NCBI GenBank assembly: GCA_036826375.1
Contig: DAISWL010000001.1
Location: 104,201 to 168,200 of the forward strand
From: Candidatus Saccharimonadota bacterium
Lineage (GTDB): Bacteria > Patescibacteriota > Saccharimonadia > Saccharimonadales > HK-STAS-PATE-42
DNA: 64,000 bases
Direction: 5' to 3'
The notes beneath the pieces are model-generated. The model saw only the letters and a list, made by a program, of their open reading frames with translations. It did not search any database and was not told the origin of the DNA. A program made the position numbers and the translations under genes. Positions 42,274 through 43,641 of the stretch are shown piece after piece. Positions within the stretch are counted from its first letter, which is position 1, and each line of letters opens with the position of its first letter.

Positions 42274-43641
42274 ATGTCTAAACCTCAAACCCAATTTAAG
42301 TTTAATATAAAGAAGAAGCTGAATGGTGCTTTGGCTCGAACCGGAACTATCACTACTCCAAATGGTGAAATTAGAACTCCAGAATTTATTGTGGTGGGCA
42401 CAAAAGCCACGGTCAAAGCTATGACGCCAGAGCAAGTGAAAAATGCCGGCGCCCAGGCCGTACTAGCAAATACCTATCACCTTTATCTTCAACCTGGTGA
42501 TGAACTGATCGGCAAAGCCGGGGGCTTACATCAGTTTATGAACTGGTCTGGGCCTATTTTTACTGATAGCGGCGGATTTCAAGCCTTTAGCCTTGGGGTG
42601 GCGATGGGGAGAGGCATCAACAAAGTTGCTGAAGCCGATGCTAAAGAAGATTTAAGTTTAGTAAAAACTCGGGGTAATCAGGTTGCCAAAATTACAGATG
42701 ACGGAGTTAAGTTTAAGAGTATTATAGATGGGAGCTCACACTTTTTTAGCCCAGAAAGAAGTATCCAAATTCAGCATAACCTAGGTGCGGATATTATGAT
42801 GGCCTTTGATGAGTGTACCGCTCCCCTAGCCCCTTATGATTACCAAAAGCAAGCACTGGAGCGAACTCACGCTTGGGCAAAAAGATGCCTCGCCGAACAC
42901 CAGCGCTTAACATCCCTTAAGTTTAATACTTCCCTCTCCAACTGTAGAAGGGATGAGGTTGAACGCGATTCCCTCTCTCTTCAGGAGGAGGACAGAGGCT
43001 TGCCTCATGGCGAGACCAGTCAATTGAACCCTTCTCCAACTGGAGGAGAGGCGAAGGGGATGAGGCTCTACCAAGCCCTCTACGGAGTAGTTCAAGGGGC
43101 CAGATATGAGGATCTGCGTCGAGAATCTGCGACCACATTGGGAGCAATGGACTTCGATGGTTATGGCATCGGTGGAGCTTTCAATAAAGCAGATATCGGA
43201 ACTGCTGTTCGCTGGGTTTGCGAGGAGTTGCCAGAAGATAAGCCTAGACACTTATTAGGAATTGGTGAAATTAGAGATATTTTTGAAGGAGTAGAAAACG
43301 GAATTGATACTTTTGATTGCGTCTCCCCTACCCGCGAAGCCAGAAATGGAGCCTTCTACACAAAATATGGCCGCAAAAATATCACTAATCTTAAGTTTAA
43401 TGATGATTTTTCTAGTTTAGATGCTGACTGCACATGTTACGCCTGCCAGAACTTTAGTAGAGCCTACATCCGCCACCTATTTAAAGCTAAAGAGATTTTA
43501 GGATACACCCTTGTGAGCATCCATAATGAGCAGTTCATATTGAACTTAATGGCTGAAATTAGAGCATCAATTGAAGATGATACTTTTTTTGATTTAAGAG
43601 ATGAAACTATAGAAAATTATTATTCAAAAAAAATAATCTGA
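42274..43641 (+). CDS. tgt: tRNA-guanine transglycosylase (queuine tRNA-ribosyltransferase) with about 49-codon insert
   Basis: [28 protein letters not shown] and the Zn site CTCYACQNF...H. At 455 aa it is longer than the roughly 375 aa typical of Tgt. Confidence 0.92.
42929..43075. repeat. GC-rich repeat element inserted in frame inside tgt
   Basis: 147 bp (49 codons) of GC-rich hairpin-forming sequence. 42964-43006 is the reverse complement of 7563-7610 at about 33 of 38 positions. It lies between the conserved Tgt segments ...RCLAEHQRL and ALYGVVQG. Confidence 0.7.

Follow-up and report, generated by a model that had tools for sequence, protein, structure and literature searches.

A GC-rich in-frame insert in the tgt gene of a Saccharimonadales bacterium as a probable passenger of three BoxC/PIT/TMECO-type repeat units

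Selfish repeats that lie in frame within essential genes are known mainly from Rickettsia. Rickettsia palindromic elements (RPE), whose presence in protein-coding genes was reportedly described by Ogata et al. in 2000, are single palindromic elements of 100–150 bp. In-frame insertions of small repeats of the MITE, ERIC or REP type occur elsewhere, as described for the MITEs of Coxiella (PMC5896051) and in a review of prokaryotic MITEs (PMC10969869). Such elements are non-coding repeats that can join ORFs and add peptide segments; they have terminal inverted repeats and, usually, target-site duplications.

BoxC/PIT/TMECO repeats form a family of intrastrand-triplex motifs known across phyla. 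They were described by Bachellier in the 1990s, by Hoyne and Maher (2000), and by Holder et al. (2015, PMC4666352). The family layout is CCCTCTCC-loop-GGAGAGGG-loop-GGGTGAGG, in which a pyrimidine block is followed by a purine block complementary to it and then by a purine block that mirrors the previous one. For E. coli, PMC4666352 reports that the triplex-motif copies of strain K-12 are always intergenic, that an association with transposons was not found, and that PIT elements did not show promoter or terminator activity. The same source links triplex-motif loci to genomic instability and states that purine-motif triplexes do not form in RNA. Published speculation on the mobilisation of these repeats invokes template switching or repair at non-B DNA. 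A third related system is whalefall-1 (Rfam RF01762), proposed as a free-standing non-coding RNA and reported from whale-fall metagenomes only. Weinberg et al. (2010, PMC2864571), who discovered it, rated it as a likely non-coding RNA.

The locus described here lies in a stretch of 64,000 nucleotides from a Candidatus Saccharimonadota bacterium, referred to below as the window. Its tgt gene contains a GC-rich block that keeps the reading frame. The gene, the insert and the sequence at its edge are located as follows:

42274..43641, plus strand: tgt (tRNA-guanine transglycosylase), an intact 455-aa ORF
42929..43075, plus strand: the insert, an in-frame, stop-free, GC-rich block of 147 nt, approximately residues 219–265
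42917..42926, plus strand: the 10-mer TTAAGTTTAA, over-represented genome-wide, adjoining the 5' edge of the insert and spanning codons L-K-F-N

The gene is well preserved. Its ORF matches Pfam TGT with E=7.6e-132, in two parts that flank the insert, and a model of the protein compared with the TGT of Z. mobilis gives a target-normalised TM score of 0.93. The catalytic residues Asp98, Asp179 and Asp348, as well as Gln274 and all Zn ligands (Cys386, Cys388, Cys391 and His417), occupy invariant alignment columns. Outside the insert, dN/dS is approximately 0.06 (range approximately 0.03–0.12), and tgt is under strong purifying selection. Both the ORF and the comparison with orthologs bear out the claim of an earlier note on this DNA that an in-frame, stop-free block of some 147 bp lies in a Tgt of 455 aa. 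Two minus-strand frames are open through the block as well. Its GC content is 50–56%, compared with 38% for the window. The edges of the insert are approximate: the nearest insert-free orthologs have 412 aa, which corresponds to a net gain of 43 codons, and a 5-codon ancestral linker, DGDHN, has been replaced or obscured. At the position of TTAAGTTTAA, strain L026 has TTAAGCTTAA, and the insert-less relative L007 lacks the motif. An assembly artefact is ruled out by the occurrence of the same or variant inserts in independent NCBI, ENA, JGI and Logan assemblies; 14 contigs drawn from NCBI, Logan and ENA encode the identical Tgt protein, insert included, with close insert-bearing variants in JGI and Logan assemblies.

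No Pfam domain was found within the insert, Rfam returned only noise (miRNA and snoRNA models, E ~1), and no terminal inverted repeats were found on the 147-bp block or on its units. Inteins comprise about 130 aa or more and carry Cys/Ser...His-Asn motifs, while group I and group II introns have conserved cores. An intein, an intron, and translational bypass were rejected, as 49 codons are too short and no such motifs are present. No intron family was detected at 42850–43150 in an Rfam E-value scan, and an intein or intron is further disfavoured by the variability of the peptide, one third of which is dispensable in strain L024.

The insert consists of three tandem units in direct orientation, each approximately 27–39 nt long and spaced 38 and 59 nt apart:

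42932..42958, plus strand: U1, a decayed triplex-motif unit reading CCCTCTCC-AACT-GTAGA, then a 6-nt deletion, then AGGGATGAGG
42970..43006, plus strand: U2, 37 nt, with the hairpins TCCCTCTC..GAGGAGGA and GAGGC-TT-GCCTC, found with a type-B profile
43007..43028, plus strand: ATGGCGAGACC and a spacer, between U2 and U3
43029..43067, plus strand: U3, a partly decayed triplex-motif unit reading CCTTCTCC-AACT-GGAGGAGAGG-CGAA-GGGGATGAGGCT

U1 and U3 repeat each other in direct orientation. A type-A nhmmer profile detects U3 with E=6.5e-12 and U1 with E=2e-4; for the L024 ortholog of U1, which is a perfect copy (CCCCTCTCCA-ac-TGGAGAGGGG-ctg-GGGGTGAGGT), the value is 3e-9. U2 is detected by the type-B profile with E=5e-11, and among strains it varies as a 39-nt block that is present or absent and is flanked by AT..AT. 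The segment at 43007–43028 may be what is left either of a third block of U2, now degenerate (the intergenic copy described below has CAGGGTGAGGC), or of the ancestral linker (L007 has GATGGCGACCATAAT).

U2 is the part of the insert that matches, over its full length, a repeat between genes elsewhere in the window, and a partial hairpin lies near this second copy:

7553..7598, minus strand: the intergenic family copy, reading TCCCTCTCTT-ct-AGGAGAGGGA, then a CAGGGGCTTGCCCC hairpin, then AGGGTGAGGC
7666..7687, plus strand: a partial GC-rich hairpin, CCCCTCCC-TTTCA-GGGGTGGGG, with the third block absent, one of the GC islands of the window

In a gapped Smith-Waterman alignment, 42974–43014 and the reverse complement of approximately 7561–7601 are identical at 34 of 41 positions, with a score of 45. 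In 1000 shuffled sequences, the mean was 16.1 (sd 2.2) and the maximum 29, a score of 45 never being attained; the second-best tile of the whole window scored 26. With blastn-short, the insert and the intergenic repeat share a single 15-nt seed at E=2.3, and a three-sequence nhmmer profile matches only the tgt insert and the intergenic copy in the window. The similarity is real but short. The earlier description of the insert core as an inverted copy of the intergenic repeat therefore holds, the copy lying on the opposite strand and scoring above all shuffles, and the similarity does not vanish under alignment statistics (45 against 16±2), an outcome that had been named as counting against it. 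In the stem of the second hairpin, a compensatory pair distinguishes U2 (GAGGC/GCCTC) from the intergenic copy (GGGGC/GCCCC). The intergenic copy is carried by all five same-species strains checked, with no empty site, and in relatives at approximately 80% identity the synteny around this locus differs; consequently, the comparison gives no information on its boundaries. The hairpin at 7666–7687 is possibly a decayed unit, and a profile search of the window gave no match there. With two loci (tgt and 7553–7598) and this partial hairpin in 64 kb, the notion of a repeat dispersed in the genome is weakly sampled. The window also contains a MITE-like element with 17-nt terminal inverted repeats, at 3538–3704 and 37462–37629, which indicates that MITEs are active in this genome.

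The units of the insert can be assigned, through their orthologous copies, to the BoxC/PIT/TMECO family. The assignment was made with a triplex finder, the family being defined by stems of at least 8 nt with short loops, with T allowed opposite A in the third block. In L024, U1 shows 10/10 Watson-Crick pairs and 10/10 triads, and U3 shows 9/10 and 9/10. U3 of L001 and of L026 has an 11-nt stem (11/11 Watson-Crick pairs, 10/11 triads), and U1 of L001 scores 9/10 and 9/10, as does the intergenic copy of the window. In controls, a stem of at least 8 nt was obtained in 0 of 200 shuffles, and E. coli TMECO #1 scored 9/9 and 9/9. The three-block architecture is thus near-perfect in the sister strains. 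In the window, U3 has a mismatched 7-nt stem (6/7 and 6/7), U1 is broken by its 6-nt deletion, and U2 is undetected by the finder. Because these copies are decayed, the family assignment rests on the orthologous copies of the sister strains, and the three units of the window would be relics recognisable only by alignment to them.

No copy fits the published consensus, CCCTCNCCC N3-6 GGGNGAGGG N3 GGGNGAGGG, with its strict 9-9-9 arrangement, and the stem register of the tgt units is shifted (CCCCTCTCC / GGAGAGGGG / GGGGTGAGG). U1 of L024 fits the relaxed pattern CCCTCTCC N4 GGAGAGGG N5 GGGTGAGG. Consequently, the tgt units are to be regarded as a relative of TMECO and not as TMECO sensu stricto. 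They share with the described repeats the same succession of C-rich, complementary G-rich, and mirror G-rich blocks, with words that are nearly CCCTCTCC/GGAGAGGG/GGGTGAGG; units of approximately 35 nt, often in adjacent pairs or clusters; variable loops with conserved stems; and small local deletions with variability from strain to strain, represented here by indels of 39 and 6 nt. They differ from them, apart from the shifted register and the decay of the window copies, in lying in frame inside a protein-coding gene, whereas the E. coli K-12 copies are intergenic, and in forming three direct tandem units in place of the inverted pairs of E. coli. The host is also different, being a low-GC Saccharibacterium with a reduced genome, apparently beyond the taxa named in PMC4666352.

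U2 and the intergenic copy constitute a variant of the family that resembles whalefall-1. In the intergenic copy, the second loop of the triplex motif contains an additional hairpin; the Rfam model matches this copy with 25.5 bits (E=8e-5) and its L151 ortholog with 22.7 bits, both below the gathering score of 37. No whalefall-1 match to the tgt U2 was found even at E up to 10. Both copies nevertheless share with whalefall-1 the succession of a CUCUCC hairpin, ACAG, another hairpin whose loop is GCUUGC, and CAGGGUGAGG, with the difference that the second hairpin is much shorter in both. Here, this layout may be that of a triplex-motif repeat whose loop 2 contains a hairpin.

The distribution of the pattern is wide. 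The form CCCTCTCC N3-6 GGAGAGGG N2-8 GGGTGAGG occurs on more than 120 IMG/VR contigs with GC contents of 0.37–0.70, in 158 instances, compared with approximately 0.01 matches expected by chance, a rough estimate that assumes a database size and a pattern degeneracy. Long ORFs contain 41 of the 158 instances, including Pfam-confirmed portal, Mu F and primase genes, and family copies lie in frame in phage genes that encode portal, Mu F and DnaG-type primase proteins. A search of the triplex-motif sites of 10 viral loci with Rfam at gathering thresholds gave no family. A related element is present in 4225 of 5426 E. coli genomes, and the insert-less relative L007/L008 carries a type-A unit in the intergenic DNA immediately downstream of tgt. 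A scan of GTDB genomes and JGI metagenome contigs, two collections that lack the source species, with the core pattern of U2, AGGAGNNGGACANNGGCTTNCCNCA, brought up no additional copy: the 8 GTDB and 6 JGI matches are all attributable to chance in GC-rich genomes, and several of them share a single conserved protein-coding segment. Searches of the literature yielded no report of such repeats in Saccharibacteria and no later work on in-frame triplex motifs.

Comparison with orthologs indicates that the insert is specific to one lineage, as the earlier note had expected. It is confined to a cluster at 93% identity or higher and is missing from orthologs at 81–83% (412–431 aa). It is likewise not a homologous feature of the whole phylum, the case that had been set against its interpretation as a repeat insertion: other Patescibacteria/CPR Tgts carry hairpin inserts at the same site, which are unrelated in sequence. 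In many CPR Tgts, this site is a hot spot of indels. P0061 has a triplex-like unit in the same loop, so that at least two independent events are counted at this loop in Patescibacteria, and P0002 has an AT-rich insert of 19 aa at the site without a repeat signature. Within the insert-bearing lineage, strain P0123/L024 lacks exactly U2, the 39-nt block, and other strains differ by 6 nt; with indels of these lengths, the reading frame is always kept. Midpoint rooting on dS favours a deletion in L024 as the origin of the U2 polymorphism. In comparisons between strains, dN is 0.05–0.19 and dS 0.03–0.17 within the insert, that is, dN ~ dS, while tgt without the insert has dN of 0.001–0.027 and dS of 0.04–0.30. 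The insert peptide evolves neutrally. Its dS is lower than that of the remaining gene, and its nucleotide divergence is approximately twice as high for strains at 93–96% identity.

The structural model agrees with this picture of a tolerated segment. In the AlphaFold model, residues ~222–266 form a coil with pLDDT of 44–58 between a helix (188–221) and a strand (268–273), at the position where E. coli Tgt has an 8-residue loop. The insert is thus predicted to form a disordered loop on the side of the barrel that faces away from the active site, in line with the earlier supposition of a surface loop away from the catalytic residues. Most likely, the peptide is translated: if the segment is read through, frame and stop-free state should be preserved, as is seen across strains through in-frame indels. 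The peptide would be harmless, and the insert probably has no function of its own. No similar in-frame peptide was found elsewhere among 5.8 billion proteins with an alignment of two insert peptides as query, a search of low sensitivity for a variable query of 49 aa, in which 2 candidates shared words and none scored.

Taken together, these data favour, with a probability of roughly 0.78, the interpretation that three tandem BoxC/PIT/TMECO-type units entered loop-coding DNA of tgt and are tolerated as a neutral, in-frame passenger. The units would have entered the DNA for the short helix-to-strand loop of the Tgt TIM barrel in one species-level lineage of Saccharimonadales. Because Tgt is under strong purifying selection, only insert versions with a length that is a multiple of three and without stop codons persist; a TGA occurs in one of the three reading frames of GGGTGAGG. 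The peptide would then form an unstructured loop opposite the active site and drift neutrally in sequence, while the DNA units would decay and undergo in-frame indels.

The comparison with RPE, which the earlier note had drawn, stands in one part. As with RPE, selfish repeats lie in frame in a conserved gene, free of stops, and supply a surface peptide segment compatible with function: the frame is kept, the catalytic residues are intact, the loop is predicted to be disordered, and the gene is under purifying selection. The other part, a single palindromic element of 147 bp, does not stand. A single long RPE-like palindrome was rejected, as the z-scores of the whole-insert fold are -1.5 (window) and -2.0 (L001) and the insert consists of three short units in direct orientation with triplex-type mirror symmetry. 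There is, moreover, no apparent sequence relationship to RPE, the units being assigned to another family, and the host phylum differs as well. A broader version of this idea, in which a transposase acting in trans brought one non-autonomous element of RPE-like or MITE type into tgt, where it was kept as a surface loop, is quite improbable. It would suit this version that the insertion keeps the frame of a conserved gene and has a related copy between genes, a true MITE-like element is present elsewhere in the window, and the AT..AT around U2 could be a 2-bp target duplication. However, a 2-nt flank repeat arises by chance in 1/16 of cases, and this ambiguous AT..AT is the most that the tgt units offer of the terminal signatures of MITE, ERIC and REP elements. 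The absence of terminal inverted repeats on the block, the direct repetition of U1 and U3, and the unremarkable fold also argue against it; no transposase is linked to the element, and in E. coli the family was not found tied to transposons (PMC4666352).

A functional role is equally improbable. At the level of nucleic acid, the insert might be a whalefall-1-like structured RNA within the mRNA, a hot spot of replication or recombination, or a site where translation pauses; at the level of protein, it might be a lineage-specific interaction loop of Tgt. Such roles would be consistent with the rating of whalefall-1 as a likely non-coding RNA, with the three-block architecture kept in several strains, with the compensatory pair in hairpin 2, with a dS below that of the remaining gene, and with the genomic instability that PMC4666352 links to triplex-motif loci. 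On the other side, the peptide evolves neutrally, the units are decayed or broken in the window strain, a whole unit is dispensable in L024, and U2 has no match to whalefall-1 at the threshold given above. The statements of PMC4666352 on the missing promoter and terminator activity of PIT elements in E. coli and on purine-motif triplexes in RNA point in the same direction.

Local growth by slippage or duplication of GC-rich hairpins, with a convergent resemblance to the intergenic copy and to TMECO through composition and structure, is the least probable alternative: it would account for U1 and U3 as local duplicates, for the sequence-unrelated inserts at this indel hot spot, and for the AT-rich insert of P0002, but it is opposed by the 34/41 match of U2 to the intergenic copy (the top match of the window, with a score that no shuffle equals), by the block-for-block agreement of the L024 and L001 units with a pattern vastly over-represented across unrelated genomes, and by a GC content of 50–56% that is hard to derive from local sequence in a 38% GC genome.

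The passenger interpretation reveals no new biochemical system. It links the enterobacterial and cyanobacterial BoxC/PIT/TMECO repeats, the orphan whalefall-1, and the in-frame selfish repeats of essential genes. A wider generalisation, suggested by the 41 of 158 IMG/VR instances inside long ORFs and by the two events at the Tgt loop, is that BoxC/TMECO-type repeats are not purely intergenic but a cross-phylum class of small elements that routinely enter coding DNA in frame and give rise to disordered loops and linkers in proteins; it is tentative and stands somewhat below even odds. If it is true, Rfam whalefall-1 would be a variant of this DNA repeat family and not a free-standing sRNA. For annotation, the finding would explain low-complexity segments of the 'PSP..GEG..GVR' type and length outliers among conserved metagenome proteins. 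For the organism and the repeat family, it places a triplex repeat family in the reduced genome of a Saccharibacterium, within coding sequence, and the intact, decayed, and present-or-absent units, together with the insert-free orthologs, offer a natural series for following entry, decay, and purging under frame constraint.

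The window's tRNA-guanine transglycosylase gene (tgt) carries an extra in-frame block, the insert, which resolves into three repeat units when the DNA of four strains is aligned (the window and the insert-bearing sister strains L001, L026 and L024). The features are as follows, in window coordinates:

42274..43641, plus strand: tgt, an open reading frame with a 455-aa product
42929-43075, plus strand: insert, 147 bases, stop-free in the tgt frame
42932-42958, plus strand: U1, direct repeat of U3, type A
42970-43006, plus strand: U2, a different 37-nt unit (type B) with two small hairpins
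43029-43067, plus strand: U3, direct repeat of U1, type A
7553-7598, minus strand: intergenic copy, a related repeat

The product matches Pfam TGT (E=7.6e-132), with the match interrupted around residues ~210-265. The in-frame, stop-free block claimed in the earlier note is borne out; it is also stop-free in two minus-strand frames, and its GC content is 50-56%, against 38% for the window. U1 and U3 share the layout CCCYTCTCCA-AC-TGGAGARGGG (a hairpin), a short loop and then GGGGRTGAGG. The Saccharimonadales MAG P0123/L024 (GCA_049290995.1) lacks precisely 39 nt covering U2, its junction reading ...AACGCA|ATGGCGAGG, compared with ...AACGCG-AT[37 nt]AT-GGCGAGG in U2-bearing strains. All length differences among strains are multiples of three. 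Midpoint rooting on dS makes the window strain the outgroup to its three sisters, so that loss of U2 in L024 would be the likelier event, while a 6-nt deletion within U1, common to the window and L026 against the dS tree, suggests recombination among strains.

The stretch matching the intergenic copy is exactly U2. Although blastn-short returns only a 15-nt seed (E=2.3), the likeness to 7563-7610 that had been claimed holds under proper statistics: gapped local alignment of 42974-43014 with the reverse complement of the intergenic repeat gives 34/41 identities and a score of 45, compared with a mean of 16.1 (sd 2.2, maximum 29) in 1000 shuffles and 26 for the runner-up 160-nt tile across the entire window. 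The intergenic U2-like copy is found in every same-species strain, including a MAG whose tgt lacks U2.

The window protein (HMS31802.1, from a 'Candidatus Saccharibacteria' MAG) occurs identically on 14 contigs from independent sources. Within the cluster formed at 90% identity, all members (93-96% identical) have the insert, with variations. The next relatives outside the cluster (81% identity, 412 aa; ~20 clusters, some on 0.5-0.9 Mb contigs) have only a short linker, LT.KEFE.DGDHNYQALYGV. In P0002 (431 aa, 83% identity) the site is occupied by an unrelated insert of 19 aa that is AT-rich, and inserts of unrelated sequence lie at exactly this site in the more distant Patescibacteria proteins P0027, P0052, P0061, P0086, P0092 and P0115. 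GC-rich hairpin clusters are present in the insert DNA of two of these distant genes, and that of P0061 holds a triplex-type unit, TCCCTCCT / AGGAGGGG / GGGGTGGT. The confinement of the insert to proteins at least 93% identical, with unrelated inserts elsewhere, indicates a lineage-specific insert at a recurrent landing place, the former being what the ortholog alignment proposed in the earlier note was to confirm. In every insert-bearing strain, a gene combining HTH_3 and Fic (41175-42104, minus strand) lies directly upstream of tgt; the insert-less 81% relatives L007 and L008 lack it at this position, and their tgt comes right after the upstream 264-aa gene. Additions of another kind are seen in the CPR homologs P0067 (557 aa) and P0097 (546 aa), which have extra PF04480 (DUF559) and PF18741 endonuclease-like domains.

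Outside the insert, tgt shows dN of 0.001-0.027 and dS of 0.04-0.30 (ratio ~0.03-0.12), compared with 0.05-0.19 and 0.03-0.17 (ratio ~0.6-4) within it, which points to a peptide free of constraint in a frame that is maintained. As an explanation, a functional RNA or protein loop is unlikely. Catalytic Asp residues and Zn ligands are invariant in the Tgt alignment. In an AlphaFold2 model (81-sequence alignment, mean pLDDT 84.8, pTM 0.85), whose core fits Z. mobilis TGT at a target-normalised TM score of 0.93, residues ~222-266 are predicted as coil (pLDDT 44-58) between helix 188-221 and strand 268-273. Residues 137-207 and 267-437 align with E. coli 110-180 and 189-362, so the insert replaces an 8-residue helix-to-strand loop. 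Loops of this kind in a (β/α)8 barrel are on the side away from the catalytic face. Gln274 (Z. mobilis Gln203) lies at the C-terminal end of the strand after the insert loop. A second variable, low-confidence region (42574-42690, residues ~101-140, pLDDT 55-63) is common to CPR orthologs, with varying length, and has no counterpart in E. coli or Z. mobilis Tgt, which argues for an older, lineage-wide insertion.

The type-A profile also matches intergenic DNA just downstream of tgt in L007 and L008, where the unit reads CCCTCTCC-AAAT-GGAGAGG-AACTGA-GGGTGAGG. The derived pattern, CCCTCTCC N3-6 GGAGAGGG N2-8 GGGTGAGG, occurs on more than 120 IMG/VR contigs (GC 37-70%), with at least 158 instances among the matches listed; chance expectation is ~0.01, a rough figure based on an assumed database size and the degeneracy of the pattern. 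A purely local expansion is improbable as the origin of the insert. Of 5426 complete E. coli genomes, 4225 contain related sequence (median 3 places each); it is unannotated there and occurs, for instance, as an inverted pair between mrcB and hrpB. Holder et al. 2015 (PMC4666352) describe such elements as BoxC/PIT/'TMECO' intrastrand triplex motifs with the consensus CCCTCNCCC N3-6 GGGNGAGGG N3 GGGNGAGGG. According to that study, E. coli K-12 has 23 of them, 'always located intergenically', 262 proteobacterial genomes together contain 3610, and G/C-rich triplex motifs abound in cyanobacteria. It reports that the elements are not linked to transposons, that they are associated with genomic instability in their vicinity, and that they form a triplex stable in vitro, its formation in vivo not being shown. 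The tgt units are shifted-register relatives that do not match the strict consensus. A three-block finder was applied, in which block 2 is complementary to block 1 and block 3 mirrors block 2, with T allowed opposite A.

Three-block matches (Watson-Crick pairs; triads)
E. coli TMECO #1, positive control: 9/9; 9/9
L024 U1: 10/10; 10/10
L024 U3: 9/10; 9/10
L001 and L026 U3: 11/11; 10/11
L001 U1: 9/10; 9/10
Window intergenic copy, 14-nt hairpin in loop 2: 9/10; 9/10
L007 intergenic unit: 8/9; 8/9
Window tgt U3, 7-nt stem: 6/7; 6/7

Stems of at least 8 appeared in 0 of 200 shuffles of any insert. The window's tgt units can be read as decayed relics, whereas sister-strain units are still near perfect. 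The intergenic copy scores 25.5 bits (E=8e-5) against the Rfam motif whalefall-1 (RF01762), below the gathering score of 37, and its L151 ortholog 22.7 bits; tgt U2 gave no match to this model in the Rfam scan. In whalefall-1, the consensus (CUCUCC hairpin, ACAG, second hairpin, CAGGGUGAGG) would be the same three-block design, its loop 2 containing a hairpin.

Among the listed IMG/VR instances, 41 of 158 lie in ORFs of at least 60 codons on both sides, many of which may be spurious where the contig is GC-rich. Pfam confirms real genes in four of five tested. Those of L064 and L079 encode portal plus Mu F proteins, and the unit falls in the linker between the domains; L071 encodes a Mu F protein and L106 a DnaG-type primase. 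In-frame copies of the family are thus probably common, a statement for which the literature search found no published counterpart.

Other small repeats were observed alongside. Downstream of tgt in L007 (11540-11590) and L008 (11555-11600), a second small hairpin adjoins the triplex-motif unit, with loop and stem completely different between these near-identical genomes (GGATCCCCGCATGCGCAGGGATGAC vs GGATCCTGAAATAAATTCAGGATGAC); the 450-nt spacer has the look of a place where several small hairpin repeats have piled up. The 10-mer TTAAGYTTAA is hugely in excess along the whole window (e.g. 42917-42926, 7517-7527, 43390-43401): TTAAGTTTAA occurs 33 times on the plus and 27 times on the minus strand, and palindromic TTAAGCTTAA 21 times, against ~0.3 per strand expected from base composition. 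In density (~1.3 sites per kb, both orientations, within and between genes) and length it is similar to DNA uptake sequences. Which of the two forms stands at the tgt site varies among strains, with an F/L substitution as the price; the motif is missing there in the insert-less relative. A ~167-nt element, unrelated to the insert, has two ~90% identical copies (3538-3704 and 37462-37629) with 17-nt terminal inverted repeats (TATAGCCCCCRCAAAAC ... GTTTTGCGGRGGCTATA) and may be MITE-like or a small structured RNA gene. In the same-species strain L151 (~2700-2990), downstream of the tRNA orthologous to 8019-8092, three tandem partial tRNA-end copies (…GCAAATGAGCTAATGCCCCATCT…), each followed by ~100 nt of related sequence, look like traces of integration or excision events that recurred at the tRNA; there is a single copy in the window.

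A transposase-driven MITE or Rickettsia palindromic element (RPE) has little probability. RPEs are in-frame selfish repeats tolerated as surface segments, and the earlier comparison with them stands for this behaviour, but the insert falls outside the structural definitions of both RPEs and MITEs. The BoxC/PIT/TMECO family and the phenomenon of in-frame repeats are already known; what appears undescribed is their combination here, in which units of this family, one whalefall-1-like variant nested among them, lie in frame within the gene for a housekeeping enzyme in a CPR organism with a reduced genome.

The best-supported explanation is that the insert is a passenger. Units of a cross-phylum triplex-motif repeat would have entered the DNA for a permissive Tgt loop in one Saccharimonadales lineage, and the reading frame would have acted as a filter, leaving stop-free versions with lengths in multiples of three. 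The resulting peptide would be a neutral disordered loop, and the units may be decaying and shedding parts, which would agree with the instability described for the family.
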